The translations under genes and the position numbers were made by a program. Positions 1,764-27,838 of a stretch of 62,180 nt of DNA are shown piece after piece. How positions within the stretch are numbered: position 1 is the first letter of the stretch; the number at the start of each line of letters is the position of its first letter. Under the pieces are notes generated by a model, which worked only from the letters and a program-made list of their open reading frames with translations, was not told the DNA's origin and did not search any database. Source of the stretch: an uncultured Pelagibacteraceae bacterium (GTDB lineage Bacteria; Pseudomonadota; Alphaproteobacteria; Pelagibacterales; AG-422-B15); NCBI GenBank assembly GCA_902510025.1, contig CABWZX010000003.1:1-62180 (forward strand), read 5' to 3'.

Positions 1764-3071
1764 ATGAAAAATTTAACTATTATTGTTCTTGCTGCTGGCA
1801 AAGGTACACGAATGAATTCATCTGTACCTAAAGTGTTCCAAACTCTAGGAGGAATACCACTAATTGAACATGCATTAAATTCTGCCAAAAAACTTAATCC
1901 CAAAGAGATTTTTCTTATTTTAAATAAAGATATAAGCAAAGAAAATTTTAAGAATGAAAAATTGGTTCATTGTTTTTACCAAAAGAAGCAATTAGGAACA
2001 GCAGATGCAGTTAAGGCATGTTTATCAGAACTAAAGAAAAGTAAAAATAAAATATTGGTAATGTACGCAGATGTCCCTTTTATTGATTCAAGAACTCTTA
2101 GGAATGTCATAAATATAAAATCTCCTAAAGAAATTAAATTATTAGCATTTAAAAAAGAGGAATATAATTCTTATGGAAAGATAATTCTTGGGACTAATGG
2201 TTTTGTTAATGAGATCATTGAACAAAGAGAATTAAGTACAAAAGATAGATATATTCTTTGCAATTCAGGAGTCTTCTGTAGCAATGCAAAGGTTTTTTCT
2301 CAATTATTACCAAAAATTAAGAATAATAATAAAAAGAAAGAATTTTATTTAACTGATATATTCAAAATTGCATCTCAAAATGATTTTTATACGAAAACGG
2401 TACTGGGAGAAGAAAAAGAGATTATGGGAATTAATGATAAAAAAGAACTAGCTCAGGCGGAAAAGATTTTACAAGAAAGTTTAAGAAATAAATTCTTAAA
2501 GAAGGGTGTAACTATGAAGGACCCGGATACTGTATATCTCTCAGCCGACACTAAGATTGGAAAAGATGTAACAATTTATCCTCATGTTTTTATTGGCGAG
2601 AATGTTTCAATATCAAGTGGAGCTATGATTTATTCCTTCAGTCATTTGGAAAATTGTAAAATAGGAAAAAATTCTAGTATTGGACCTTATGCAAGACTTA
2701 GACCTGGAGCAGATATTTCTGATGGAGCAAAAGTTGGAAATTTTGTAGAAGTAAAAAATTCAACTTTAGGTAAAGGCTCTAAAGCTAACCATTTAACATA
2801 TATTGGAGATGCGGTAATAGGTAAAAATGTAAATATTGGAGCAGGAACGATAACTTGTAATTATGATGGCAAGAAGAAACATAAGACAATCATAGAGGAT
2901 GATGCATTTATTGGATCGAATTCATCTATTATTGCGCCAGTTAAAATAGGAAAAAAATCATATATTGGTTCAGGCTCAGCTATTTCTAAAAATGTTAAAG
3001 ACAATTCATTAGCTGTTGAGCGCAGTACACAAATGGAAATAAAGAATTGGTCAAAAAAGGTTAAGAAGTAA
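1764..3071 (+). CDS. glmU: bifunctional UDP-GlcNAc pyrophosphorylase/GlcN-1-P acetyltransferase
   Basis: LAAGKGTRM, EFYLTD, GNFVEVK, HLTYIGDA, TCNYDG, hexapeptide repeats. Confidence 0.97.
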   Translation: MKNLTIIVLAAGKGTRMNSSVPKVFQTLGGIPLIEHALNSAKKLNPKEIFLILNKDISKENFKNEKLVHCFYQKKQLGTADAVKACLSELKKSKNKILVMYADVPFIDSRTLRNVINIKSPKEIKLLAFKKEEYNSYGKIILGTNGFVNEIIEQRELSTKDRYILCNSGVFCSNAKVFSQLLPKIKNNNKKKEFYLTDIFKIASQNDFYTKTVLGEEKEIMGINDKKELAQAEKILQESLRNKFLKKGVTMKDPDTVYLSADTKIGKDVTIYPHVFIGENVSISSGAMIYSFSHLENCKIGKNSSIGPYARLRPGADISDGAKVGNFVEVKNSTLGKGSKANHLTYIGDAVIGKNVNIGAGTITCNYDGKKKHKTIIEDDAFIGSNSSIIAPVKIGKKSYIGSGSAISKNVKDNSLAVERSTQMEIKNWSKKVKK

Positions 3072-4895
3072 ATGTGTGGCATTATAGGAATTGCAGGAAG
3101 TGAACCTGTATCTGCAAAAATAATTAAAGGTCTCAAAAAACTAGAGTACAGAGGGTATGACTCTGCTGGTCTTGCAATTTTTGACAATGATCAAATTAAA
3201 CAGAAGAAAGTTCAAGGAAAGTTATCAAATTTAATAAAATCTCTCGATGCTGATTCTATAGAAGGCTCTATTGGGATTGGGCATACTCGGTGGGCAACTC
3301 ATGGAGTTCCTTCAGAAACTAATGCGCACCCTCATTCATCCCCAGTAGTGTCGATAGTACATAATGGCATAATTGAAAATGCATCTGACCTAAAGAAAGA
3401 AGTAGAGGATAGTGATTATTTATTTATATCTGAAACTGATTCAGAAGTTATTACTGCTCTTCTTACAAGCTATTTAAATCAAAAGGTAAGTCATGTGGAT
3501 GCAGTCAAAAAAATGGTATCTAAATTAAAAGGATCATACGCTCTCGCCATTCTATTTAATGATTTAAAGGATACTATTGTAGGAGTAAAAAATGAAAGCC
3601 CACTGGTTGTTGGGCACGGCAAGTCAGGGTACTCAATCGGCTCAGATTCTATTGCTTTAAGTTCTATTGCAAACAAGGTTTGTTATCTTGAAGATGGAGA
3701 TATTGTTTTAATCAAAAACAATAACATAGAAATAATTAATCAATCTGGAGAAATTGCTAATCGAGAGTTTGTTGAAATAAATATATCTGAAGATGAAACA
3801 AATAAGGGTTCATACAATCATTTTATGGAAAAAGAGATCCATGAACATCCACAAGCTGTAGGTGAGACATTCAGGCAATTTATTGATCATGATAAAAGAA
3901 TCATTTCAGTAGACAGTATTGACTTAGATTTTTCTGATATTCCAAAAATACATTTAATTGCCTGTGGTACTGCATACTACTCATGTTTGGTAGCGAAGTA
4001 TTACTTCGAGCAATATGCAAGAATTTCAGTGGAGTGTGATATGGCTTCAGAATTTAGATATCGAGACCCTGTACTTGACTCTAAATCATTATGTATTTTT
4101 GTTTCACAATCTGGAGAAACAGCTGATACCAAGGCGGCATTAGATTATTGTAAGAGCGCAAAGATCAAAACACTAAGTATTGTAAATGTTAAAAACAGCT
4201 CAATTGCAAGGGAAAGTGACTACTGCCTATATACTAAAGCTGGAGTTGAAATAGGAGTAGCTTCTACAAAAGCATTTACAGCACAATTATCAGTGCTTTT
4301 ATCGATGGCAATCCATTGTGGAACAATCAATGAGAAGATCTCATTAGATGAAAATAAAAATATATGCCAAGAGATTATGCAGGCTCCTCAGTTAATAGAA
4401 AACGCAATAAAAAGATCATATGAGTTAAAAGAGACAGCAAAATCTATCGTTGATGCGAAGGGTGTTATGTATTTAGGTAGAGGGACCGCATTCCCATTGG
4501 CTTTAGAGGGAGCTCTTAAATTTAAAGAAATATCTTATATTCATGCTGAAGGATATCCCGCAGGAGAAATGAAACATGGACCTCTTGCTCTGATAGAAAA
4601 GGACCTCCCAGTTGTTTGTATTGTTCCTCCAGGTCCGTTATTCCATAAAACAATTTCCAACATTCAAGAAGTCATAGCTAGAGGGGGTAGAATTTTAATG
4701 ATTACTGATGACGATTCACTTCAGTCAGAATCTGAAAATATATGGCAAGTTTTTCGTCTACCTAACGTCCCCAAGTCTATCGAGTCTATTGTATATTCAA
4801 TTCCTATTCATATGCTTGCTTACTATACAGCAGTAGAACTTGGAAATGATGTTGACCAACCAAGAAATCTTGCCAAATCAGTCACAGTAGAATAA
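3072..4895 (+). CDS. glmS: glutamine-fructose-6-phosphate transaminase
   Basis: MCGI N-terminus, GHTRWATHG, SQSGET, C-terminal PRNLAKSVTVE. Confidence 0.98.
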   Translation: MCGIIGIAGSEPVSAKIIKGLKKLEYRGYDSAGLAIFDNDQIKQKKVQGKLSNLIKSLDADSIEGSIGIGHTRWATHGVPSETNAHPHSSPVVSIVHNGIIENASDLKKEVEDSDYLFISETDSEVITALLTSYLNQKVSHVDAVKKMVSKLKGSYALAILFNDLKDTIVGVKNESPLVVGHGKSGYSIGSDSIALSSIANKVCYLEDGDIVLIKNNNIEIINQSGEIANREFVEINISEDETNKGSYNHFMEKEIHEHPQAVGETFRQFIDHDKRIISVDSIDLDFSDIPKIHLIACGTAYYSCLVAKYYFEQYARISVECDMASEFRYRDPVLDSKSLCIFVSQSGETADTKAALDYCKSAKIKTLSIVNVKNSSIARESDYCLYTKAGVEIGVASTKAFTAQLSVLLSMAIHCGTINEKISLDENKNICQEIMQAPQLIENAIKRSYELKETAKSIVDAKGVMYLGRGTAFPLALEGALKFKEISYIHAEGYPAGEMKHGPLALIEKDLPVVCIVPPGPLFHKTISNIQEVIARGGRILMITDDDSLQSESENIWQVFRLPNVPKSIESIVYSIPIHMLAYYTAVELGNDVDQPRNLAKSVTVE

Positions 4896-4904
4896 ATTAC
4901 TCTT

Positions 4905-5600
4905 ATGGTAGCAACATTGACAAATGATGAAAATGTTTCGATCATCACTCTTGATGATGGAAAGGTAAATGTTTTTTCTCCTACAATGATAGAGGAGGTA
5001 AGTAATCTATTGGACAAAGTTCCGACTGATAAAGGGTCTCTTCTTATAGTTGGAAGAGAAGGAATTTTTTCAGCTGGATTTGATTTAAAAGTTTTGATGT
5101 CAGGTGATGCTGAAAAAGCTGTTGGCATGTTGAGGTCAGGCTTTGAAATGCTTTCAAGAATATTTTCTTTTCCAAGACCTGTCGTTGCAGCATGTTCTGG
5201 TCATGCAATTGCTTTGGGAGCTTTTTTATTATGTAGCTGTGATTACCGTGTTGGAACTAAAGGTAAATTTCAGATTGGAGCGAATGAAGTAAGAAACAAT
5301 ATGATTGTTCCGACACCAATTCTTGAGCTGGCAAAATTTAAACTTGCCAAGAATCATAAACAGAGAGCTCTTTTAAATGGAGAAATGTATTTAATAGAAG
5401 ATGCTGTTGCACCTGGTTATCTAGATGAAGTTGTTGAACCAGATAAACTAATAGAAACTGCTACAATCAAAGCAAAGGATTTATCTACGTTGGGTCATCC
5501 TTTCTATCACCAGACAAAGCAATTAGACCAAGAAGAGGTCATTAAGAAGATAAATTCAGGAATCGAGAAAATTACGGTTTCTGCGATAATGCCTAAATAA
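4905..5600 (+). CDS. crotonase/enoyl-CoA hydratase family protein
   Basis: DDGKVN, FSAGFDL, PVVAACSGHAIALG. Confidence 0.85.
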   Translation: MVATLTNDENVSIITLDDGKVNVFSPTMIEEVSNLLDKVPTDKGSLLIVGREGIFSAGFDLKVLMSGDAEKAVGMLRSGFEMLSRIFSFPRPVVAACSGHAIALGAFLLCSCDYRVGTKGKFQIGANEVRNNMIVPTPILELAKFKLAKNHKQRALLNGEMYLIEDAVAPGYLDEVVEPDKLIETATIKAKDLSTLGHPFYHQTKQLDQEEVIKKINSGIEKITVSAIMPK

Positions 5601-5688
5601 ATCAATAAAAATCAATAACTTTTGCTTCAATGCTAGAATTTTACTTTATTTAGTATTATAACCCACCCAAATCAAATAGTAGAAAAAT

Positions 5689-7068
5689 ATGGCTAAATGG
5701 TCTGTAAATAGTTGGAGAAATTTCGCAGCGAAACATCTGCCTGAATACCCTGATGCTGAAAAGCTAAAGAGTACGGAGGAGATGCTTAGAACCTATCCAC
5801 CTTTAGTATTTGCAGGTGAAGCAAGAGAATTAAAAAGAAATCTTGCTAAAGTTGCTGAAGGAAAAGCTTTTCTTTTACAGGGAGGTGATTGCGCTGAGAG
5901 TTTTGAAGATTTTAATGCAGATTACATAAGAGATACTTTTAAAGTTTTATTGCAAATGTCAGTGACATTAACTGCTGCAGGAAATTGTCCAGTAGTTAAA
6001 GTTGGAAGAATGGCAGGTCAATTTGCTAAACCGAGAAGTGCACCTAAAGAAGAAATAGATGGAGTAGAGTTAGACAGTTATAAGGGTGACATTATTAATG
6101 ATATGGAATTTACTACTGATTCAAGAGTTCCTGATCCTGAAAGAATGATCAGAGCTTATATGCAATCAGCTTCAACCTTAAACTTGCTTCGAGCATTTGC
6201 TAAGGGGGGTTTTTCTGATTTAAACAAAGTGCATCAGTGGAATATGGGTTTTGTCGATGATAGCTTACAAGGTCAGAAATATAGAGAGATTGCAAACAAA
6301 ATCTCAGACACTTTAGCTTTCATGGATGCTATTGGAATCTCATCAAAAAATACAAGAAGATTACGTGCAGTAGATTTTTATACAAGTCATGAAGCACTTT
6401 TACTTCCTTATGAAGAATGTTTAACAAGAACGGATAGTACTTCAGGTGAAGTATATGATACGTCAGCTCATATGGTTTGGATAGGCGATAGAACTCGTCA
6501 ACCTGATGGGGCGCATGTAGAGTTTTGTAGAGGTATTAAAAATCCAATTGGCATTAAGTGTGGACCAACACTGGATCCTAATGAGCTTAAAAAGCTAATT
6601 GATATACTTAATCCTGAAAATGAAGCAGGTAAGATCACTTTGATATGTCGTTTTGGTGCAGAAAAGGTTAATGAATTACTGCCTAAACTTATTAAGCCTT
6701 TTATCAAGACTGATTATAATCTTGTATGGTCTTGTGACCCAATGCATGGAAATACAACTAAATCAAATTCAGGCTTTAAAACTCGACCATTTGAGAGAGT
6801 TTTACATGAAGTTGAGTCATTCTTTGATATTCATCATGATATGGGAACATATCCTGGTGGAGTTCACTTAGAAATGACAGGACAGAATGTGACAGAATGT
6901 ATTGGGGGAGCTCAGGCTATTAAGGATGAGGATCTTTCAGCGCGTTATCATACACACTGTGATCCACGCTTAAATGCTAGCCAGGCAATTGAATTAGCCT
7001 TTTTAATATCTGATAAGCTTAGAGAATCCCAAGAACCAAGCAATTCTAAGATTACAATTGCCAAGTAA
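5689..7068 (+). CDS. class II 3-deoxy-7-phosphoheptulonate (DAHP) synthase
   Basis: [39 protein letters not shown]. Confidence 0.95.
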
Positions 7069-7094
7069 TTACAACTAAATTATCTAGTTGTAGT
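7068..7094 (+). other. intergenic stem-loop between DAHP synthase and nadE
   Basis: TACAACTA-aattatc-TAGTTGTA, a perfect 8-bp inverted repeat extendable by G-U/A-U pairs; no U-tract. Confidence 0.45.
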
Positions 7095-7103
7095 ATCAGT
7101 AAA

Positions 7104-8759
7104 ATGTCAGAAAAATTATCTATATTAATTGCTCAAGCAAACCCAATTGTAGGGGATATTGATTACAACAAGAATATTGTTCTAGAAACTATTAATAAAT
7201 ATCACGACGTAGATCTTATTATTTTTTCTGAATTAATGCTTACAGGATATCCACCTGAAGATTTGGTTTTAAAATCTGCTTTTAAAAATAAATTTATGAG
7301 AGCATTAAAAGAGATTAATCAAAATTTAGAAGGTAAACATTGTACAGTTATATTAGGAATGCCTTGGGAGGAAGAATGTGGCTTATACAATGCAGCTGTG
7401 GTTTTACAGAATGGAAGTGTAGTTTATAAACATTTTAAAAATGCTTTACCTAATTATGGTGTTTTTGATGAAAAAAGAATTTTCTTACATGGAGAGGATG
7501 TTAATTCATTTAATTTAAAAGGAATAAATCTTGGAATATTTGTTTGTGAAGATATATGGGTTCATAATACAATTTCAAAGTTAAATGGAACAGGAATTGA
7601 TTTAGCAATTTCAATTAATGCATCTCCATTCGATATCAATAAGATGAATGAACGCCTAGAAGCGGCAACTTGTTTTTCTAAGGAGACAGGCGCACCTATT
7701 ATTTATGTTAACCAAGTTGGAGGCCAAGATGAGATTGTCTTTGATGGAAATTCATTTTTAGCAGATAAGAATGGGCTCATTAAGAGATTAAATTATTGTC
7801 AATCAGTTAATGAAAGGATTGATTTTAATTCTAATGATAAATCATTCTCATTGAGAACTGATCTAGAAGGAGAAGTGGATAATAATGATCTTATTTATTC
7901 TAATTTGATCCTTGGACTAAGAGACTATGTAAATAAGAATAAGTTTCCAGGAGTTGTGATTGGTATTTCAGGAGGAATAGATAGTGCTTTTAGTGCATCT
8001 GTTGCAACAGATGCATTAGGTCCTGATAGAGTAAAGGGAATTCTGATGCCCTCAAAATTTACGAGCAATGAAAGCAATGAAGATGCAAATCAGCTTGGAG
8101 ATAATCTTGGAATTGAATTAAAGAGTATTTCAATTGAAGAAATTGTTAAAGCTTATGACAGCACCCTAGATCCTTTATTTAAAGAGTCAAAAAAAGATAT
8201 TACTGAGGAAAATATTCAATCTAGAGCAAGAGGTTCATTATTAATGGCTTATTCAAATAAATTTGGACATATGGTCCTAACTAATGGAAACAAATCTGAA
8301 GTATCGGTTGGTTACTCGACCTTGTATGGTGATATGTGTGGTGGGTTTTCAGTAGTAAAAGATTTATATAAAAGCGAGCTCTACAAATTAGCTGAATGGA
8401 GAAATAATAATATTCCATCAAACTCTGTATTAGATAAAAAATCTTTAATTCCAGGAAATATTTTAACTAAAGAGCCTACTGCTGAATTAAAGCCAAACCA
8501 AATGGATAAAGATACTTTACCTCCTTATGAAGTGCTTGATAAAATTTTATATCTTCTTGTTGAAAAGGAGAGTTCTATTTCAGAAATAGTTGATTCAGGT
8601 TTTGAGGTCGATGTTGTTACAAAAGTACAAAATATGCTTTACAATTCTGAATACAAAAGAAGACAAGCAGCTCCAGGAGTAAAGATTTCTGAAAGAAATT
8701 TTGGTTATGATAGAAGGTACCCAATTACCAATGCGTTTAGAGATAGTAAAGGTTCTTAG
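7104..8759 (+). CDS. nadE: glutamine-dependent NAD+ synthetase
   Basis: Nitrilase domain (GYPPEDL, LPNYGVFDEKR, CEDIW) plus SGGIDS, ENIQSR, GYSTLYGD. Confidence 0.95.
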   Translation: MSEKLSILIAQANPIVGDIDYNKNIVLETINKYHDVDLIIFSELMLTGYPPEDLVLKSAFKNKFMRALKEINQNLEGKHCTVILGMPWEEECGLYNAAVVLQNGSVVYKHFKNALPNYGVFDEKRIFLHGEDVNSFNLKGINLGIFVCEDIWVHNTISKLNGTGIDLAISINASPFDINKMNERLEAATCFSKETGAPIIYVNQVGGQDEIVFDGNSFLADKNGLIKRLNYCQSVNERIDFNSNDKSFSLRTDLEGEVDNNDLIYSNLILGLRDYVNKNKFPGVVIGISGGIDSAFSASVATDALGPDRVKGILMPSKFTSNESNEDANQLGDNLGIELKSISIEEIVKAYDSTLDPLFKESKKDITEENIQSRARGSLLMAYSNKFGHMVLTNGNKSEVSVGYSTLYGDMCGGFSVVKDLYKSELYKLAEWRNNNIPSNSVLDKKSLIPGNILTKEPTAELKPNQMDKDTLPPYEVLDKILYLLVEKESSISEIVDSGFEVDVVTKVQNMLYNSEYKRRQAAPGVKISERNFGYDRRYPITNAFRDSKGS

Positions 8760-8762
8760 TTT

Positions 8763-10091
8763 ATGACAGTAACGACAAGATTTGCTCCAAGTCCTACAGG
8801 TTTACTTCATCTTGGTAACATAAGAACAGCTTTAATTAATTGGTTGTTTGCACGAACAAATAATGGAAAATTTATTTTACGTATTGATGATACTGACACG
8901 GAAAGATCAAAAGATGAGTATGTTTCTAAGATTAAATATGACTTAGAATGGCTAGGTATTGATTACGATGAAACCTTTAATCAATCCTCTCGCTTCGATG
9001 TTTACAAAGAAAGATTTGAATCTTTAAAAGATCAAGGGAGGATTTATCCTTGCTATGAAACTCCTGAGGAATTAGAACGCAAAAGAAAGCTTCAACTTGC
9101 TGCTGGAGGTAAACAAGTTTATGACCGTTCAGCTTTAAAACTTTCAGATCAGGAAAAGAGAGGTTTTGAAAGCGAAGGAAGAAAGCCTCATTGGAGGTTT
9201 TTAATGAAATCTGAAAGCATTAAATGGAATGATATTTTAAAAGGGGATATAGAAATTGATTTAACAAGTCTATCAGATCCTGTTCTCTTTAGAGAAGATG
9301 GAGTTCCACTTTATACATTTAGCTCAGCAGTTGATGATATAGATTTTAATGTCACTAATGTAATTAGAGGAGATGATCATACCAGCAATACTGCCGTTCA
9401 AATTGAACTGATCAATGCTCTAGATAAAAATAATTTAATTTTTGCTCATCATGCGTTATTGAAAGCTTCTTCGGGAGATAAATTATCTAAAAGAGATAAT
9501 GTCATTTCAATTGAAAGTTTTAGAGATTTAAATATTGAGCCTTTAGCAATATTGAGTTTACTTGCAACAATAGGAACTTCAAATTCTATTGAACTCAAAG
9601 ACAGTATTGATCAAATTATTAATGAATTTAAGATTAAAACAATATCTACTTCACCTGGGCGTATTGAAACTGACCTTTTAAATGCACTCAATAGGAAACT
9701 AATTCAGAATTATGATTTTGATACAGTTAAAGATCGATTAGAGAAAGTTGATAAAAAGATTGATGAAAAATTTTGGACAGCAATACGTGGAAATTTAAAT
9801 ACTGTAGAAGAAATTAAACAATGGACAGATATTGTATATGACAGCAAGATTATTGAGCCGAAAGATAAAGAATTTATTAGTACAGCAATTGATCTAATGC
9901 CTGAAGAACCATGGGATGATGATACTTGGGACCAATGGACCTCAGCAATTAAAGAAAAGACAAATCGTAAGGGTAAAGAACTATTTTTACCTTTAAGGGA
10001 AGCTTTTACTGGAGTAAGTCAAGGCCCTGAGATGAAAAAACTCATTCAGTTAATTGGTAGGGATAAGATTATTGAAAGAGTGAAATTGTAG
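8763..10091 (+). CDS. gltX: glutamate--tRNA ligase
   Basis: RFAPSPTG-HLGN, LRIDDTD, IRGDDH, KLSKR. Confidence 0.95.
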   Translation: MTVTTRFAPSPTGLLHLGNIRTALINWLFARTNNGKFILRIDDTDTERSKDEYVSKIKYDLEWLGIDYDETFNQSSRFDVYKERFESLKDQGRIYPCYETPEELERKRKLQLAAGGKQVYDRSALKLSDQEKRGFESEGRKPHWRFLMKSESIKWNDILKGDIEIDLTSLSDPVLFREDGVPLYTFSSAVDDIDFNVTNVIRGDDHTSNTAVQIELINALDKNNLIFAHHALLKASSGDKLSKRDNVISIESFRDLNIEPLAILSLLATIGTSNSIELKDSIDQIINEFKIKTISTSPGRIETDLLNALNRKLIQNYDFDTVKDRLEKVDKKIDEKFWTAIRGNLNTVEEIKQWTDIVYDSKIIEPKDKEFISTAIDLMPEEPWDDDTWDQWTSAIKEKTNRKGKELFLPLREAFTGVSQGPEMKKLIQLIGRDKIIERVKL

Positions 10092-10092
10092 A

Positions 10093-11454
10093 ATGACATT
10101 ACATCTTTACGATACATTTAGTAAATCTAAACGATTATTCGAACCAATTGATCCAGCTAATGTTAGGATGTATGTATGTGGTCCAACCGTTTATGATTAT
10201 CCTCATGTAGGCAATGCTCGTCCAGTCATTGTCTTTGATATTTTATTTAGGATTCTTCAACATATTTATGGTGAAAAGAAAGTGACATATGTTCGAAATA
10301 TCACTGATGTAGATGATAAAATTATTGCTACAGCAAAAGAGAATAATGAAGAAGTCAGGGATCTTACTGAAAGAACAATAAGTTATTTTAATGATGATTC
10401 AAATTATGTAGGAACTTTAAAACCAACAGTAGAACCTAAAGCTACAGATCATATCAGTGAAATGATTGAAATTATTGAAATATTAATCCAAAAGGAACTT
10501 GCATATGAATCAGAAGGAAATGTTCTATTTTCAACAAGAAAATTTAATGACTATGGAAAACTCTCTGGAAAGAATCTTGAAGATTTAATCGCTGGAGCTA
10601 GAGTTGAAACTGAAAGTTTTAAAAAAGATCCATCTGATTTTGTTTTATGGAAACCTTCTAAAGAAGGAGAACCTCAATGGGATAGCCCTTGGGGAAAGGG
10701 ACGTCCTGGATGGCACATAGAATGCTCAGCAATGAGCAATAAGTACTTAGGAAATAATTTTGACATTCATGGAGGAGGACAAGATTTGATTTTTCCGCAT
10801 CACGAGAATGAAATTGCTCAAAGTCAATGTGCTCATGGAGAAGTTTTTTCTAATTACTGGGTTCATAATGGATTTGTGACCGTCGAAGGTGATAAAATGG
10901 CAAAGTCAGAGGGAAATTTTGTAACTGTTAATCAATTAAAAGACAGGTATCAAGGTGAGGTTATTAGGCTAACCATGATGCTGACTCATTACCGCCAGCC
11001 ATTAAACTGGACAGAAGAAAATTTAAAGGAATCAAAAAAAATATTGGATAAGTGGTATAATTTTATTTCTGACTTTGAAACAAAAAATCCTAAGTCAGAA
11101 AATGTATCGAATGAAGTATTAAATTCATTGTATGATGATATTAATACACCACAAGCAATTGCCGATCTTCATAAAATATTTAAGAACTGCAAGAATAATA
11201 ACCAAGATTCTATTGATTTATTTTTAAACTCAGCACAGTTCATTGGCTTAATGAACAATAATCCTTCTGACTGGGTTAATTGGGGGAAAGAAAGTTCGAT
11301 CGATGAGAAGCAGTTAGAAATTTTGATAAAAAAAAGAGATGAGGCAAGAGCAGAAGGAAAATATGAAGATGCTGATAAAATAAGAGATGAGATTGAAAAT
11401 ATGGGTATTATTTTAGAAGATAAAGATGGAAAAACTTCCTGGAGATTAAGATAG
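10093..11454 (+). CDS. cysS: cysteine--tRNA ligase
   Basis: [32 protein letters not shown]. Confidence 0.97.
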
Positions 11455-13053
11455 ATGAAGGAAAAGCTTTATATTTTTGATACAACTCTTCGAGATGGCG
11501 CTCAAACTTACGGAGTTGATTTTAATGTTGATGAGAAAAAGATTTTAGCCTCAAAGCTTGATGAGCTTGGCGTAGATTACATTGAAGGTGGTTGGCCAGG
11601 TGCAAACGCTACTGATACTCAATTTTTTAATGAAAAAATTGAATTTAAAAAGTCAACTTTTACATCTTTTGGTATGACAAAAAAATCTGGAAGAAGTGCT
11701 GAAAATGATCCAGGTCTTGCATCTTTAATGAATGCTAATACTTCGTCTGTGTGTGTAGTAGGAAAATCATGGGATTTTCATGTTGATGTTGCATTGGAAA
11801 TATCTAATGAAGAGAATTTAGAAAACATTGCTCAATCAGTTAGTTTTCTTTCAAAAAATAATAAAGAAGTTCATTTTGACGCTGAGCACTTTTTTGACGG
11901 ATATAAATCAAATCCTGATTATGCAATTCAATGTCTTAAGACAGCAATTGATAATGGTGCCCGCTGGGTAGTTCTATGTGATACTAACGGAGGAACGCTT
12001 CCTCACGAAGTAGAAACCATTGTTTCAAAAGTTGTGAATTCAATCCCTGGAGAAAAACTTGGCATCCATGCGCATAACGATACGGGTAATGCTGTAGCAA
12101 ATTCCTTAGCTGCTGTTCGATCAGGTGTTAGACAAATTCAAGGAACTATTAATGGATTGGGTGAAAGGTGTGGAAATGCAAATCTAATATCTTTAATACC
12201 AACATTCTTGCTAAAACCAGAATACGCTAAAACATATGATTTATCTATCGAAGCAGGAAAACTTGATCAATTAACAGAGCTTTCAAGACTTCTTGATGAA
12301 ATCCTTAATAGAGTTCCAAATCGAACTGCTCCATATGTAGGTTCCTCAGCATTTGCTCATAAAGGCGGGCTGCATGTTTCAGCTGTTAACAAAGACCCAA
12401 AAACATATGAGCATATTGATCCTCAGTTAGTGGGAAACAGAAGACAAATTATTATTTCAGAGCAATCTGGAAAATCTAATATTGTTTCTAGGTTAAAATC
12501 GACAGGAATTACAGTCGATGAAGATGATAAAACTATTCAGAAAATATTGGATCGTGTTAAGGAAAGAGAATTTAATGGGTATTCATATGATGGGGCAGAT
12601 GCATCATTTGAGATACTTGTAAAAAAAGTGCTTGGTGAAATGCCTAATTTTTTTGAAGTAATAAATTTCAATATCAATGTAAATAATTCAGGCAAAGAAG
12701 GAAAAACTGTTTCGCAAGCTGAAGTAAAGTTGAAAATTGGCAATGACGAGCTTACTGGAAAAGGCGAGGGAGTTGGTCCAGTAAACGCTTTAGATAACGC
12801 ATTGAGAAATAATTTTCAATCAAGTGGATATTCAGAGCTAATAAAAGATTTATCTTTAATTGATTATAAAGTCCGTATTTTAAATACCGGAACAGACGCT
12901 ACAACAAGAGTATCAATTGAGAGCTCAGACAGAAATAAAAAAAGCTGGTTCACTATAGGCGTTTCAGAGAATATTATTGAAGCTTCATTTAGAGCACTTA
13001 TCGACAGCGTTGAGTACAAATTAATGAAAGAGAAAGCAAAGTCTTTAAATTAA
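11455..13053 (+). CDS. cimA: citramalate synthase (2-isopropylmalate synthase family)
   Basis: DTTLRDG, YIEGGWPG, FDAEHFFDG, HAHND, AFAHKGG; follows cysS. Confidence 0.88.
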   Translation: MKEKLYIFDTTLRDGAQTYGVDFNVDEKKILASKLDELGVDYIEGGWPGANATDTQFFNEKIEFKKSTFTSFGMTKKSGRSAENDPGLASLMNANTSSVCVVGKSWDFHVDVALEISNEENLENIAQSVSFLSKNNKEVHFDAEHFFDGYKSNPDYAIQCLKTAIDNGARWVVLCDTNGGTLPHEVETIVSKVVNSIPGEKLGIHAHNDTGNAVANSLAAVRSGVRQIQGTINGLGERCGNANLISLIPTFLLKPEYAKTYDLSIEAGKLDQLTELSRLLDEILNRVPNRTAPYVGSSAFAHKGGLHVSAVNKDPKTYEHIDPQLVGNRRQIIISEQSGKSNIVSRLKSTGITVDEDDKTIQKILDRVKEREFNGYSYDGADASFEILVKKVLGEMPNFFEVINFNINVNNSGKEGKTVSQAEVKLKIGNDELTGKGEGVGPVNALDNALRNNFQSSGYSELIKDLSLIDYKVRILNTGTDATTRVSIESSDRNKKSWFTIGVSENIIEASFRALIDSVEYKLMKEKAKSLN

Positions 13054-13056
13054 TTT

Positions 13057-13791
13057 ATGATCAAAAACATTTCAATCATTTTGGTTGATGTTCAACTACC
13101 TGAGAATATTGGACTTGCAGCACGTGCGATGTTTAATTTTGGAATTTCTAATCTAATATTAGTTAATCCTAAAATAGATTTACCATCAGAAAAGGCTGAA
13201 GCTGTTGCTGTAGACGCACTTGATCTGGTTAAGAATGCTAAGGTTTATGATGAATTAAGAGATGCTTTAGAAGATTTTACTTATTCTTTTGCCTTCACTG
13301 CAAGACATAGAGATATGAATAAAGAGTTTATTAATAGCCAAGAGGTTATTTCAGAAATTCATAATAATTATATTGGAGAAAAGATAGCAATTGTTTTTGG
13401 CGGAGAGGCTTCAGGACTTACTAATGAACATTTATCTTTAGCATCTAAATGCGTTACAATTAATACACATTCTAATTTTTCTTCTTTAAATTTGTCTCAT
13501 GCTGTATCTGTATTCAGTTATTCACTTTTTTCTTATGCTAATTCTGCAGTTAATAATTCTTATTCGGAGGAGGTGGGTACTCCTTCAAAGAATGAGCTTA
13601 TTTATTTTTTTGAACATCTTGAGAATGAATTAGAAACCAGAGGATTTTTTGAACCACAGGAAAAAATGCCTAAAATGAAGCAAAATTTGAGGAATTTATT
13701 CCATCGGGCTGACTTAAATGAACGCGAAATTGCTACACTTAGAGGGGTAGTCACAGCTCTTACCTCGTATGATAAATCTCAGAAAACCTAG
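13057..13791 (+). CDS. trmJ: TrmJ/LasT family SPOUT RNA methyltransferase
   Basis: [30 protein letters not shown]. Confidence 0.8.
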
Positions 13792-13800
13792 GATTGTGGT

Positions 13801-13828
13801 TTGACAATATTGAAGAAACCAGTATAAA
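13801..13828 (+). promoter_or_regulatory. sigma70-type promoter of rpsD
   Basis: TTGACA-16 nt-TATAAA, ending 16 nt before the rpsD ATG. Confidence 0.6.
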
Positions 13829-13844
13829 CCACGGATCGTTATAT

Positions 13845-14462
13845 ATGACAAAAAGAATAGCACAAAAACATAAGATAGACAGACGTCTAAGCGTTAACTT
13901 ATGGGGAAGACCAAAAAGCCCCTTCAATCTAAGAAAATATAAACCAGGCCAACATGGTCAGAAGCACTCAGGAAAGCTTTCTGATTTTGGAGTGCAGCTT
14001 AATGCAAAACAAAAACTTAAGGGTTATTACGGCAACCTTAATGAAAGACAATTCCGAAATTGTTATAAAGAAGCGATTAGACAAAAAGGAGACACGGGAG
14101 AAAATCTTATTGCTCTCTTAGAACGTCGACTTGATACTATAGTTTACAGATCCAAGTTTGTACCAACGGTATTTGCAGCAAGACAATTCATTAATCACGG
14201 ACATGTTAAAGTAAACGGTAAAAGAATTAATATTGCAAGCTGTCTTCTAAGTGAGGGTGATGTTGTGGAAATAAAAGATAAATCAAAGGAAATAGCTCTT
14301 GTTGTTGAATCAATTAAAAGCCAAGAGAGAGATATTCCAGGTTACATTAGTGTTGATGAGAAAAAACTATCATCAACATTTGTTCGTGTTCCTCAATTTG
14401 CTGAGGTTCCTTACGCGACTCAAATGGACCCTAAACTCGTTATTGAGTATTACTCAAGATAA
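13845..14462 (+). CDS. rpsD: 30S ribosomal protein S4
   Basis: MTKR...[31 protein letters not shown]; start corrected to 13845. Confidence 0.97.
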
Positions 14463-24103: not shown

Positions 24104-24799
24104 ATGTCCAAAGTTTTAATACTAAACCCTAGTGATCATGTTGCCATTACTTTTTGGTTGATTTCTATGGCCATGGTTGCTGCAACTGCTTTTTTCTTTT
24201 TAGAAAGAGACAGAGTAGCTGGTAAATGGAAAACGTCACTTACAGTAGCTGGATTAGTTACTGGTGTAGCGGCGTGGCACTACTTCTATATGAGAGGCGT
24301 ATGGGTAGCTACTGGGGATTCACCTACAGTACTTCGATACATTGACTGGTTAATTACAGTACCTCTTCAAATTGTTGAATTTTACGTAATTCTTGCTGCT
24401 GTAACCACTGTAGCTGTTGGCTTATTCTGGAGATTGCTAGTTGCATCTCTAGTAATGCTTGTCTTCGGTTATGTTGGTGAAACAGGAGCATTAAATACAA
24501 CATTAGCGTTTGTCATCGGAATGGCAGCTTGGTTGTATATCGTTTACGAAATTTTTGCAGGTGAAGCTAGCAAAGCGAATGCTGGAAGTGGAAATGCTGC
24601 TGGACAAGCAGCGTTTAACGCTTTGAGATTAATTGTTACAGTTGGATGGGCAATTTATCCGCTTGGTTATGCTATTGGTTATTTTGGTGGCGGCGTAGAC
24701 GCTGGCAATCTTAACCTTATTTACAACGTTGCAGACTTTGTAAATAAAATTGCATTTGGTATGGCTATCTATGTAGCTGCTATATCTGACAGCAATTAA
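24104..24799 (+). CDS. proteorhodopsin, DTE proton pump with Gln at the 105-equivalent tuning site (blue type)
   Basis: HYFYMR, RYIDWLITVPLQIVEF, GWAIYP, ADFVNK (retinal-binding Lys); AGGGGA RBS. Confidence 0.96.
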   Translation: MSKVLILNPSDHVAITFWLISMAMVAATAFFFLERDRVAGKWKTSLTVAGLVTGVAAWHYFYMRGVWVATGDSPTVLRYIDWLITVPLQIVEFYVILAAVTTVAVGLFWRLLVASLVMLVFGYVGETGALNTTLAFVIGMAAWLYIVYEIFAGEASKANAGSGNAAGQAAFNALRLIVTVGWAIYPLGYAIGYFGGGVDAGNLNLIYNVADFVNKIAFGMAIYVAAISDSN

Positions 24800-24820: not shown

Positions 24821-24850
24821 AAAAGGGGCCTCTTCGGGCCCCTTTTTTTT
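24821..24850 (+). terminator. intrinsic terminator after proteorhodopsin (bidirectional type)
   Basis: AAAAGGGGCCT-CTTC-GGGCCCCTTTTTTTT. Confidence 0.9.
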
Positions 24851-24924: not shown

Positions 24925-25012
24925 GGCCTCATGGCGGAATTGGTAGACGCAAAGGACTTAAAATCCTTTGGGATTTATTCCCGTCCCGGTTCGAGTCCGG
25001 GTGAGGCCACCA
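24925..25012 (+). tRNA. tRNA-Leu(UAA)
   Basis: GGCCTCA/TGAGGCC acceptor stem, CT-TAA-AA anticodon loop, long variable arm, GGTTCGAGTCC, encoded CCA. Confidence 0.96.
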
Positions 25013-25064
25013 ATTTTCCAATAGATATTTGACAATAAGATTGCTATAGTAAATTCCGCATATT

Positions 25065-25958
25065 ATGAAAAATACTAAATTAATTTTTTCCTCTTTTATT
25101 GTTTTCTGTTTGCTTGGCTCTATAAGCTTTGGTGGCAGTCTTGAGAATGCTTTTTTAAGCAAAACAAATCAGTTTATAGATAAGGTAACATCAAGTTTTA
25201 CCAACCTAATTAAAGGAAACGATCGAGTTAAGTATTTGGATTTTAAGGTTGATGTTCAGGAGAGCTTAAAACCTACAATTTCTATGACTAATGTGAATAG
25301 AATTATTGAGAATACAAATAGTGCTTTCTTTAATCAGAACTCTCTATCTCTTCATGATAATGATCAAACAATCAATTTTGGATTAGGGTATAGATCACTT
25401 ATTAACGATGACACGATAATGTTAGGAGGCAATGTTTTTCTAGATTATTCATTTGATGAACAGCATCAAAGACAGGGAGCGGGGGTAGAAGCTATTTCGA
25501 GCGTATTTGATGTTCGAGGAAATTATTATGATGCAACAAGTGGAATACAAACACTTGGAGACGGAAGTACAGAAGAAGCTTTAGATGGATGGGATGCGCG
25601 ACTTGATTATCATCTCCCAGTAGCAAATGATGTCAGAATATTTGCTGGACTTTTTGAATTTGAAAATGCAGCTGGCACTTATGAATTAGATGGTGAAAAA
25701 TACGGGCTTGCAGGAAGAATAGACAGATTAAGTTTTGAAGCAGGGTATATAGATGATAATAAAACTGGAGATGGTTCATTTGCAAATATTACCTATATAT
25801 TTCCTCTAGGAGCGAACAAAGCAACAAAGATAAATTCTGCTGGAAACTTTATGGAATATGTTAGCGTGCGTGATCGACTATATGAACCTGTTAAGAGAGA
25901 AAACAAAATCAGAGTAGTGAAAATTAGTGCTGCAAATATTGTAGTGAGTGGATTCTAA
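25065..25958 (+). CDS. inverse autotransporter (invasin/intimin-type) beta-barrel protein without passenger
   Basis: Signal peptide; TINFGLGYR, GGNVFLDY, HQRQGAGVE, NYY, LDGWD; linker-like RLYEPVKRENKIRV near the C-terminus. Confidence 0.8.
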   Translation: MKNTKLIFSSFIVFCLLGSISFGGSLENAFLSKTNQFIDKVTSSFTNLIKGNDRVKYLDFKVDVQESLKPTISMTNVNRIIENTNSAFFNQNSLSLHDNDQTINFGLGYRSLINDDTIMLGGNVFLDYSFDEQHQRQGAGVEAISSVFDVRGNYYDATSGIQTLGDGSTEEALDGWDARLDYHLPVANDVRIFAGLFEFENAAGTYELDGEKYGLAGRIDRLSFEAGYIDDNKTGDGSFANITYIFPLGANKATKINSAGNFMEYVSVRDRLYEPVKRENKIRVVKISAANIVVSGF

Positions 25959-25961
25959 ATT

Positions 25962-27074
25962 ATGAGTAGATTAATTTCGTATATCTTTTTATTTATAAGT
26001 CCGGTTGTTCTAAACTTAGCTTTTAGTTCTTATTCTTATGCAGTATTGAGTAATAGTGTTGAAAATCTTAAAACTTGTGGATCAGGAAAGACTTATAGTG
26101 AAGATTCTGACTCATGCGGTGGTTCATGTGCTGTAAACGAATCTGGTGCAATAATTATTGCAAGCAATGGGCTACCTTATGATGCTGAGACCTCAGACGC
26201 TTATCGAGACAGTTGCAATATGATACCTGACTTGTACCGTGTAACTCTTTACAAAGGAGGGCTTTGTACATCAGATCCATATTCAGCTTCAGGTACAACT
26301 GTTGATTATACTACTAGCTGTGATTTATTTTTTGATGACTCCTCTGGAAAAGCAATTACTTTAACTAATCAAGGTGATGGTACTGCAACCGCTAGCCCAT
26401 CTTTAGTTGATGATGGTGTTAATCTTGGAATTAAGACATATACACATGCTTTTATGGTAATGAGTAACCATTTGCAAATTAAGCATGATCAAACATATGA
26501 TTTTAGTGGTACTGCAACTGCTTCAGCAATGAAAGGTGGAGGTGATACAGTTTCATCAGGAACTACATGTTGGACAGTAGATAGAACATCTACTTATTCA
26601 AATTTAGACGGGACGACAGGAGCCAATCATGGTTCGGTCGCACTAAGAATTGGAGATGGAACTGTAGCAGAGGCGAGCACTAAGTGTGGTTCCGCAGTTG
26701 ATGGAACATTTGACTATGCTACAGAAATTATAGAAACTTTTGGTGAGGCAAGTGGCAATTGGAACGCTAGCGCTGTGACTTCAAGATGGCCATATGCAGA
26801 CTCATCGTTAGGCGGAGGAACAAAAGCTGCAATTCTATTACAGTCAGATTTAGAAACAGTTGCTACTACAATGGAAAATGGAGTAGCAATGTTATATGCA
26901 GTTGATTTAACAAATCCATTAGTTATTACAGAAAACACTACTCAGTTCAATATAGGTTTTGGCCTTTCAGGATCTGTGAGTGTTGATTTTACTACACAAG
27001 ATGGTGCAGATAATTTTCTTTTTATAACAAAGCATGGCGCTGATCCAGTAGATATTCTTTTTACTGCAAATTAA
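25962..27074 (+). CDS. secreted Cys-rich, Ser/Thr/Gly/Asp-rich hypothetical protein
   Basis: Signal peptide ending SYSYA; 8 Cys; starts 3 nt after the barrel gene. Confidence 0.8.
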   Translation: MSRLISYIFLFISPVVLNLAFSSYSYAVLSNSVENLKTCGSGKTYSEDSDSCGGSCAVNESGAIIIASNGLPYDAETSDAYRDSCNMIPDLYRVTLYKGGLCTSDPYSASGTTVDYTTSCDLFFDDSSGKAITLTNQGDGTATASPSLVDDGVNLGIKTYTHAFMVMSNHLQIKHDQTYDFSGTATASAMKGGGDTVSSGTTCWTVDRTSTYSNLDGTTGANHGSVALRIGDGTVAEASTKCGSAVDGTFDYATEIIETFGEASGNWNASAVTSRWPYADSSLGGGTKAAILLQSDLETVATTMENGVAMLYAVDLTNPLVITENTTQFNIGFGLSGSVSVDFTTQDGADNFLFITKHGADPVDILFTAN

Positions 27075-27838
27075 AATTTAAACTGTTCGTTTAAAATTCT
27101 CTCTTCAAATGAATGCTGGGCATCAAACAAAAGTTGAACAGATTTTTGATTATCTTGTTTTATTGTAACAGACTCAATATCTCTAAATTCAGTACTATCG
27201 GCAACAGCACTAACAGGTCTTTTTTTATTATCAATAATTTTAAACTTAACTTCTGAATTATTATTTAGTATGGCGCCTTTCCATCTTCTCGGTCTAAAAG
27301 CACTTATAGGAGTTAACGCTAAAACATCGGCATTAATTGGAAGAATAGGTCCATGAGCAGATAGATTGTAAGCTGTGCTACCAGATGGCGTTGATAATAA
27401 TACACCATCACATACTAGTTCTTCTAATCTAACATTTTTATCTATTGAAATTTTAATCTTAGCAGCTTGATGAGTTTCTCTAAGTAAAGATACTTCATTA
27501 ATTGCTATGGCACTATGTTCTGATCCATCTGTTGATTTAGCAGTCATTGATAGTGGTTTAATTTTTATTGATTGTGATGAATCTAATCTTTGTATTAGAT
27601 CTTCATCATTAACCATGTTCATTAAGAAACCAACACTACCGTAGTTTAAACCAAATAGAGGTAAATTTTTTTCCATTTGTTTTTTTATTACCTCAAGCAT
27701 GAATCCGTCACCGCCAAGCACAACTATAACATCGGCATTTTCAGCAGTATTGGTGCCAAATTTTTTCTCTAAACTTTCTTTTTTCTTTTGAGCTTCTTCA
27801 TTGTTAGAGGCTAAAAAGAATGGCTTTTGTAGTTTCAT
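27071..27838 (-). CDS. nadK: NAD kinase
   Basis: GGDGFML, GSVGFL, AINE, TPSGSTAYNLSAHGP. Confidence 0.95.
   Translation of the reverse strand: MKLQKPFFLASNNEEAQKKKESLEKKFGTNTAENADVIVVLGGDGFMLEVIKKQMEKNLPLFGLNYGSVGFLMNMVNDEDLIQRLDSSQSIKIKPLSMTAKSTDGSEHSAIAINEVSLLRETHQAAKIKISIDKNVRLEELVCDGVLLSTPSGSTAYNLSAHGPILPINADVLALTPISAFRPRRWKGAILNNNSEVKFKIIDNKKRPVSAVADSTEFRDIESVTIKQDNQKSVQLLFDAQHSFEERILNEQFKF

Follow-up and report, generated by a model that had tools for sequence, protein, structure and literature searches.

The locus described here raises the question whether an outer-membrane barrel of the intimin/invasin type can work together with a protein encoded by a separate gene. It is located in a 62,180-nucleotide (nt) stretch of DNA from an uncultured Pelagibacteraceae bacterium (order Pelagibacterales; contig CABWZX010000003.1, assembly GCA_902510025.1), referred to as the window in the following. 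A gene for an inverse autotransporter (IAT) barrel of 297 amino acids (aa), which carries no passenger domain, is followed by a gene for a cysteine-rich protein of 370 aa, the partner (Table 1). The two genes constitute a real, conserved and selected module. Since a separate partner was found to be the constant neighbour of the barrel, a functional pair is very likely.

The 297-aa protein matches the Pfam profile IAT_beta (PF11924) with an E-value of 3.8e-30 and 105.8 bits, compared to a cut-off of 22.3 bits. The match extends from residue 37 to 280 and covers profile positions 30 to 279 of 279. No other Pfam domain was identified in the barrel, neither LysM nor another periplasmic domain nor any further domain. 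The named inverse autotransporter models of NCBIfam aligned to its central part only and remained far below their cut-offs (46.7 bits compared to 999 for SinH). Among solved structures, a sequence search identified the invasin β-domain 4e1t alone as a relative (E 9.8e-5). In total, 1145 homologues with lengths of 163 to 520 aa were found at E ≤ 0.001; the best 120 of these 1145 measure 199 to 341 aa, and all of them carry PF11924.

An AlphaFold2 model of the barrel was built on 37 sequences and reached a predicted local distance difference test (pLDDT) value of 80.8 and a predicted template modelling (pTM) score of 0.73. It comprises an N-terminal helix (residues 2–21), a second helix of low confidence (26–49), the barrel strands, a linker with a short helix and a C-terminal hairpin (Table 1). 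In VIA-align, the model was superimposed on intimin (4e1s) with Z 25.9 and a root-mean-square deviation of 2.4 over 223 residues, model positions 53 to 287 corresponding to intimin 208 to 449. Invasin (4e1t) gave Z 25.9 as well, whereas the next unrelated barrel scored Z 18.0 and the 12-stranded porins KdgM and NanC were found at Z 16–17. Only 10 residues follow the last position aligned to intimin 449, so that there is no room for a passenger, and the Ig-like (immunoglobulin-like) or lectin passenger that follows the barrel in a canonical adhesin is absent. According to the model, the 297-aa protein is a complete intimin-type translocation unit without a passenger.

In intimin, the linker fills the pore of the barrel. 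The present model likewise predicts a linker that runs back through the pore, in agreement with both intimin and invasin. Among the 37 aligned barrels, V276 and R278 of the linker never vary, N280 is kept in at least 90%, and a short strand-like tail follows the linker in every one of them. Compared to intimin and invasin (type Ve; 4E1S, 4E1T), the protein is alike in its Pfam domain and in its predicted fold including the linker, and differs in the missing passenger, the missing LysM/periplasmic domain and a sequence identity of 18% to the solved domains. The initial annotation had proposed a passenger-less invasin-type barrel from the motifs NFGLGYR, GGNVFLDY, HQRQGAGVE, NYY, DGWD and RLYEPVKRENKIRV, the last followed by 13 residues ending in ANIVVSGF. 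All of these are present in the translation, and the proposal is borne out by the family match, the structural match and the end of the protein 10 residues past the domain.

For the analysis of the gene pairing, 201 genomes of the order were sampled. PF11924 matches were found in 79 of these, 42 of 59 in the family of the window and 36 of 141 in the other family; for the genomes of at least 90% completeness the number was 45 of 154. The open frames of the matches listed range between 201 and 513 aa, and none is longer than 513 aa. Each carrying genome harbours between one and three copies of the pair. A first set of 31 loci was composed of 30 loci of the best-scoring PF11924 matches and the second copy of the present genome. 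In all 31, an open reading frame (ORF) for a partner with a hydrophobic start (232–377 aa) is located behind the barrel ORF (280–357 aa) on the same strand, with a gap of −14 to +14 nt. The number of cysteines in these partners was 4, 6, 8, 9 or 10 and was even in 30 of 31 cases.

A second set was hand-picked from lower-scoring matches and comprised 20 loci with 22 barrel ORFs, one of which is cut by a contig end. An ORF matching the partner profile was identified behind 20 of the 21 assessable barrel ORFs, one of the 20 being visibly broken (L058). The exception is L044 (G011:C1, 3436–4248, minus strand), a 270-aa chimera of the N-terminal half of a barrel (profile positions 25–154) and a partner-like C-terminal end. 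In L058 (G022:C14, 2161–4190), the pair has decayed: its barrel is shortened, and its partner is broken up into two ORFs. From the class outside the order, 400 other genomes were sampled; 3 of them were matched by the partner profile, with a barrel-only ORF directly upstream in all three, and a further sample of 400 genomes outside the order gave one weak partner match. The co-location of the two genes that was anticipated in the initial annotation is therefore upheld, both within the order (31/31 and 20/21) and elsewhere in the class (3/3).

A second pair was found on contig 11 of the same genome (L002), with a barrel of 309 aa (1246–2175) and a partner of 331 aa (2181–3176). The two barrels of this genome are 27% identical (E 8e-19), and the two partners gave no BLASTP alignment. 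Directly before this second pair, at positions 17–1180 of L002, an HlyD-family membrane-fusion gene is located (PF13437, E 5.6e-19). The presence of a type I secretion component beside a type V-like pair may be a coincidence or a functional link.

In the genome G147, two pairs are arranged in tandem. The largest cluster (L040, G049:C1:962000-977000, minus strand, 3239–14217) contains two barrels (290 and 319 aa) and five partner-family ORFs (332–406 aa) within 11 kb. A FecR-domain ORF, a DUF2860 ORF and an ORF without family lie between its barrel and partner genes. It looks like a variable surface-protein island.

The 370-aa partner contains 8 cysteines and a hydrophobic N-terminus, and a scan against Pfam and NCBIfam assigned it to no family. 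The putative signal peptides of both proteins were judged by eye from basic residues, a hydrophobic stretch and a small-residue site (Table 1). A total of 59 close homologues of about 360–378 aa was found, the named ones being hypothetical proteins of Pelagibacterales, Pelagibacteraceae and Candidatus Pelagibacter. An exhaustive search with the partner resulted in 165 representatives at E ≤ 0.001, including 76 at ≤ 1e-10 and 11 at ≤ 1e-30. In an alignment of 70 partner sequences, C102 and C203 are invariant and C56, C85, C120 and C242 are conserved in at least 90%. Pfam likewise assigned no family to five more full-length members, namely P0060, P0093, P0125 and the partners encoded in L016 and L004. 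The partner of the second copy matched only Hia_Tpr_ring_dom (E 0.045), with 13.9 bits far below the cut-off of 27. A protein of 3288 aa (P0176) showed 27 stretches matching the partner; it has a multidomain adhesin-like make-up (VWA, Big_9, PKD and others), and this was taken as a compositional or repeat match.

The AlphaFold2 model of the partner (pLDDT 88, pTM 0.83) is all-β after a helix at residues 2–20. The fold searches were done with the whole model. Foldseek gave no clear match in the PDB (best E 0.086), VIA-align against 48,161 chains gave no hit with Z ≥ 5 (best Z 4.6, the Bacteroides fimbrial protein 3sy6_B), the best match in the viral library BFVD had an E-value of 0.094, and the ESM Atlas returned unnamed clusters only. 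An Ig-like core is compatible with these results, and a new fold is not claimed.

A BLAST comparison separates the 31 partners of the first set into class A (13 loci, including that of the window) and class B (18 loci). A comparison of both classes with hhalign gave a probability of 86% over only 67 C-terminal columns; a common ancestry of the two is likely. When the partner classes are mapped onto a maximum-likelihood tree built from the 31 barrels, a single change suffices, on a branch with a support of 100/98, and no exchange of partner class was seen. Barrel and partner thus co-diverge. Since the barrel clades coincide with the partner classes and both clades hold genomes of both families of the order, the pair goes back to an old duplication and has been inherited as a unit. 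The tail of the barrel differs by class, ending in ...GF in 13 of 13 class A loci and in other ways in 18 of 18 class B loci. This match is explained equally well by common descent and is not an independent sign of co-adaptation, because relatives share their labels.

Compared to the orthologues in the nearest relative, which belongs to the same genus, the ratio of nonsynonymous to synonymous substitution rates (dN/dS) amounted to 0.10 (barrel) and 0.08 (partner), so that the two genes are under purifying selection. For the distant orthologues in L024 and L025, dS exceeds 1 and is saturated, which makes these ratios unreliable. The partner had been described as part of a swappable, possibly hypervariable surface module. 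This is not supported: the partner classes change only once on the barrel tree, and the dN/dS values of about 0.1 contradict a hypervariable partner at short range.

A third subclass of the pair was observed in L043, L045, L047–L051 and L059. Its partners have a length of about 307–311 aa with 4–5 cysteines and terminate in ...QF.MEFE or ...QFDIEFE; their match to the class A profile is only weak. The barrels of this subclass end in ...IVGY or ...IAGY.

The principle of a separately encoded substrate has already been published for inverse autotransporters. In Salmonella, the outer-membrane protein ZirT, which is related to intimin and invasin, is required for the secretion of the adjacent ZirS (Gal-Mor 2008, PMC2270342). 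The term 'two-partner inverse autotransporters' was proposed for ZirT/ZirS(/ZirU), SinH/SinI and Yfr4, and the same study describes an 'invasin_beta-only' architecture or one whose C-terminal extension is very short (Heinz 2016, PMC4943183). Its Tables S5/S6, which list the operons of Fig. 8A, contain Ca. Pelagibacter sp. HTCC7211 B6BQN0 together with the downstream B6BQM9. The proteins of the window resemble this group in that IAT_beta stands alone and the SAR11 example has a downstream gene; they were matched to it by architecture and not by the sequence of the accessions. The word 'Pelagibacter' occurs 0 times in the main text of Heinz 2016 (PMC4943183). A description of the partner family, of the constancy of the pairing, of the classes or of the structure was not found in the parts of that paper covered, supplement file 1 being outside these. 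Likewise, no paper describing the partner family was found in the literature on SAR11/Pelagibacter inverse autotransporters, surface proteins or the HTCC7211 accessions.

In both the ZirT/ZirS system and the pair described here, one or more genes lie behind the barrel gene in the same orientation and encode proteins that lack a barrel and are exported by Sec, putatively so in the case of the present partner; sometimes several paralogues are present. The two differ in that ZirT has Ig-like domains, which its substrates resemble (Heinz 2016, PMC4943183), whereas the present barrel ends 10 residues past the β-domain. Furthermore, the partner is rich in cysteines, shows no Pfam family or clear structural match and is a member of a family without a name that occurs mainly in Pelagibacterales. 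Type Vb two-partner secretion (TPS; FhaC/FHA) is similar as an idea, with a barrel gene beside the gene of an exported protein. It differs from the present pair, in which Pfam identified IAT_beta only, with no Omp85/POTRA in the barrel as in TpsB and no TPS domain in the partner as in TpsA. What is new here is the complete lack of a passenger, the dedicated unnamed family of cysteine-rich partners and the co-diverging classes.

A layout halfway between ZirT-like and barrel-only is present in the genome G116 (L042, G116:C1, 2141–3673, minus strand). Its barrel of 510 aa combines IAT_beta with two Big_12 Ig-like stretches, and two partner-family genes (305 and 299 aa) are located behind this single barrel. 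That an Ig-bearing barrel still serves the same partner family argues that the partner is a separate companion and not a detached passenger. The initial annotation had called the system split, which implies an origin from a fused gene. This could not be sustained: G116 keeps its two partner genes behind a 510-aa barrel, and no fused barrel-partner form was found among proteins of 649–2000 aa searched with the partner as query, which is weak evidence.

For the function of the pair, an operon-like envelope module in the manner of a minimal ZirT/ZirS-like partnership at the outer membrane is the explanation we favour, at about even chances. The 297-aa protein would be exported by the Sec system and form an intimin-type barrel in the outer membrane, with its linker plugging the pore and its short C-terminal β-hairpin placed at the outer face. 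The 370-aa partner would be exported separately by Sec and stabilized by disulfides; 6 of its 8 cysteines are conserved in at least 90% of the relatives. It may then rely on the barrel for reaching the surface, for being held there or for its release. The occurrence of several partner paralogues per barrel (five partners for two barrels in G049, two for one in G116) resembles ZirT with ZirS and ZirU.

Several points weigh against this partnership. A folded partner of about 340 residues with up to four disulfides would be hard to pass through a 12-stranded pore. Barrel and partner are linked by no supported structural prediction; the complex prediction for barrel residues 24–297 and partner residues 28–370, which used separate alignments and had no controls, gave 0.01 and 0.20 at a mark of 0.32 and speaks neither for nor against binding. 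ZirS and ZirU are similar to the Ig domains of ZirT, whereas an Ig-like domain is not detectable in the present partner. The model of Heinz 2016 invokes an extracellular domain as the receiver of the substrate, and such a domain is missing from the present barrel. Conserved adjacency alone would fit a periplasmic partner too. In addition, the barrel is present in only 79 of 201 genomes of the order (45 of 154 at a completeness of at least 90%), so the module is dispensable.

A more far-reaching version is possible, if doubtful: the pair could represent a minimal form of type V secretion that branched off long ago and stands apart, in which a barrel without passenger and POTRA domains docks or exports a dedicated family of disulfide-rich partners of no recognised fold by means of its conserved linker and C-terminal hairpin. 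The most abundant bacteria of the ocean would thereby possess a two-piece surface display with at least two or three co-evolving classes of barrel and partner. The export or anchoring of a passenger in trans, for example through the strand ANIVVSGF, had been put forward in the initial annotation as a type Ve analogue of two-partner secretion. The idea is reasonable; of it, the passenger-less barrel with its constant partner is real, while the concept itself was already published (ZirT/ZirS; Heinz 2016).

Alternatively, the partner could stay in the periplasm, or be exported by another route such as type II secretion, and bind the periplasmic face of the barrel, for example its helix 26–49; the barrel would then be an anchor and not a translocator. 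A Sec-type start and conserved cysteine pairs fit the periplasm as well as the surface, and the invasin-like adhesin InvL has been published as a type II secretion substrate. The helix in question, however, is poorly conserved and was modelled with a pLDDT of 46–57. According to the model, the linker of the barrel occupies the pore as it does in intimin, which would suit an anchor, yet the linker motif and the C-terminal tail are the best-conserved parts outside the barrel strands, and their intimin counterparts are situated inside the pore and on the outer face. On balance, this explanation appears unlikely.

In a further explanation, the two proteins are co-expressed without contact. The barrel would serve as a small channel or a structural protein of the outer membrane, and the partner would act independently in the same physiological pathway as a binding protein or an enzyme, in the periplasm or after secretion. 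The porins KdgM and NanC are the next structural neighbours of the barrel, but their Z scores of 16–17 are far below the 25.9 of intimin and invasin, in whose alignment the linker is included. An enzymatic or binding role is possible for a partner without recognisable family. The near-perfect adjacency of the genes, often with overlapping stop and start, over a deep divergence in which both co-diverge, goes beyond usual co-regulation and makes this explanation quite improbable.

The junction between the genes was compared with contigs from RNA libraries. A contig of 151 nt from an RNA-library run covers positions 25875–26025, including the stop of the barrel gene and the start of the partner gene, with 0 differences. 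The four RNA-library runs are available as contigs that cover parts of both genes only, and are no proof of transcription. That a single fused gene was split by a sequencing or assembly error, or that the locus is the remnant of a pseudogene, is extremely improbable: broken versions do exist (the chimera L044 and the split partner of L058), but two intact ORFs, each with a signal-peptide-like start, were found in 31 of 31 loci, the independent contig shows no difference at the junction, both genes have a dN/dS of about 0.1, and there is neither a fusion at 649–2000 aa (weak evidence) nor a frame above 513 aa among the matches listed. The view of the initial annotation that the junction is no assembly error is in line with the two-ORF layout and the bridging contig.

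The features of the locus and its neighbours are listed in Table 1. The first ATG of the barrel gene is located 52 nt downstream of the tRNA-Leu(taa) gene. Among the promoter-like sites of the region, 7 were seen compared to 10.8 expected from shuffled sequences, and the site between the tRNA and the barrel gene is a candidate only. At the other end, 4 nt (27071–27074) are shared by the 3′-ends of the partner gene and of the convergent NAD kinase gene. The stop codon of the partner lies in this overlap, and there is no space for a terminator between the two genes. The next gene after the NAD kinase gene encodes an FGGY-family carbohydrate kinase.

In the genome G106 of the same genus, the order rhodopsin gene, tRNA-Leu, barrel, partner, NAD kinase and FGGY kinase is identical, and in two genomes of the other family of the order the pair is located in a different neighbourhood. 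An integrated island was considered and rejected; behind the pair, the 3′-end of the tRNA does not recur as a direct repeat, and no break in composition was seen, with a GC content of 0.33–0.39 compared to 0.27–0.40 across the window. Because of the gene order shared with G106, the missing repeat and the even composition, the tRNA adjacency looks like ordinary local synteny within the genus and not like an integrated island. The position directly after the tRNA-Leu 3′-end, which had been pointed out earlier, is thus correct to within 52 nt and reflects synteny of the genus only. A barrel homologue of 341 aa (P0227) carries an N-terminal extension that is the translated upstream tRNA-Leu and is due to a wrong start call in the source. 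Since this extension reads through the tRNA-Leu gene, the same tRNA context is incidentally confirmed in that relative.

Table 1. Features of the barrel-partner locus and its surroundings in the window (position 1 is the first nucleotide of the window).
Feature	Position	Strand	Basis or remark
Bacteriorhodopsin-family (proteorhodopsin-like) gene	24104-24799		PF01036, E 5.3e-45; upstream of tRNA-Leu
Terminator-like hairpin, strong, 11 pairs (6 G-C)	24821-24846		Between rhodopsin gene and tRNA-Leu
tRNA-Leu(taa)	24925-25012	+	ARAGORN; context, outside the module
Candidate promoter TAGATA-17-TATAGT with TG, 9/12 matches	25022-25050	+	Consensus scan; weak
Barrel-only inverse autotransporter gene, 297 aa	25065-25958	+	ORF, IAT_beta match
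Barrel, signal-peptide-like N-terminus, about residues 1-23	25065-25133	+	By eye; helix 2-21, then 21-28 with pLDDT <50
Barrel, predicted periplasmic-side N-terminal helix, residues 26-49	25140-25211	+	DSSP on model; pLDDT 46-57
Barrel, predicted strands, residues 55-246	25227-25802	+	Model; align to intimin/invasin β-domains
Barrel, linker, residues 247-282, conserved V-K/R-R-x-N motif	25803-25910	+	Counterpart of the pore-filling linker of intimin
Barrel, C-terminal tail, predicted β-hairpin 283-287 and 292-296, ending ANIVVSGF	25911-25955	+	
Spacer, 3 nt, barrel stop to partner start	25959-25961	none	ORF coordinates
Partner gene, 370 aa, 8 Cys, all-β, putatively exported, unnamed family	25962-27074	+	
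Partner, signal-peptide-like N-terminus, about residues 1-27	25962-26042	+	By eye; helix 2-20, then 22-34 with pLDDT <50
NAD kinase gene, convergent	27071-27838	minus	

The value of the pair lies in the detail of a variant and not in a new kind of system. Genomes of the SAR11 type are very small, yet 79 of the 201 genomes of the order keep between one and three copies of the pair, and both of its genes are under purifying selection. If the barrel does export or hold the partner, an inverse autotransporter barrel can serve a separate protein without having an Ig-like domain of its own, which would bear on the mechanism of type Ve secretion. As for its role in SAR11, we can only guess that display on the surface might serve adhesion, the uptake of nutrients or contacts with phages or grazers. 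If exported or held by the barrel, the partner would count among the small number of candidate surface proteins in an extremely abundant ocean bacterium, with relevance for phage adsorption, grazing and particle contact.

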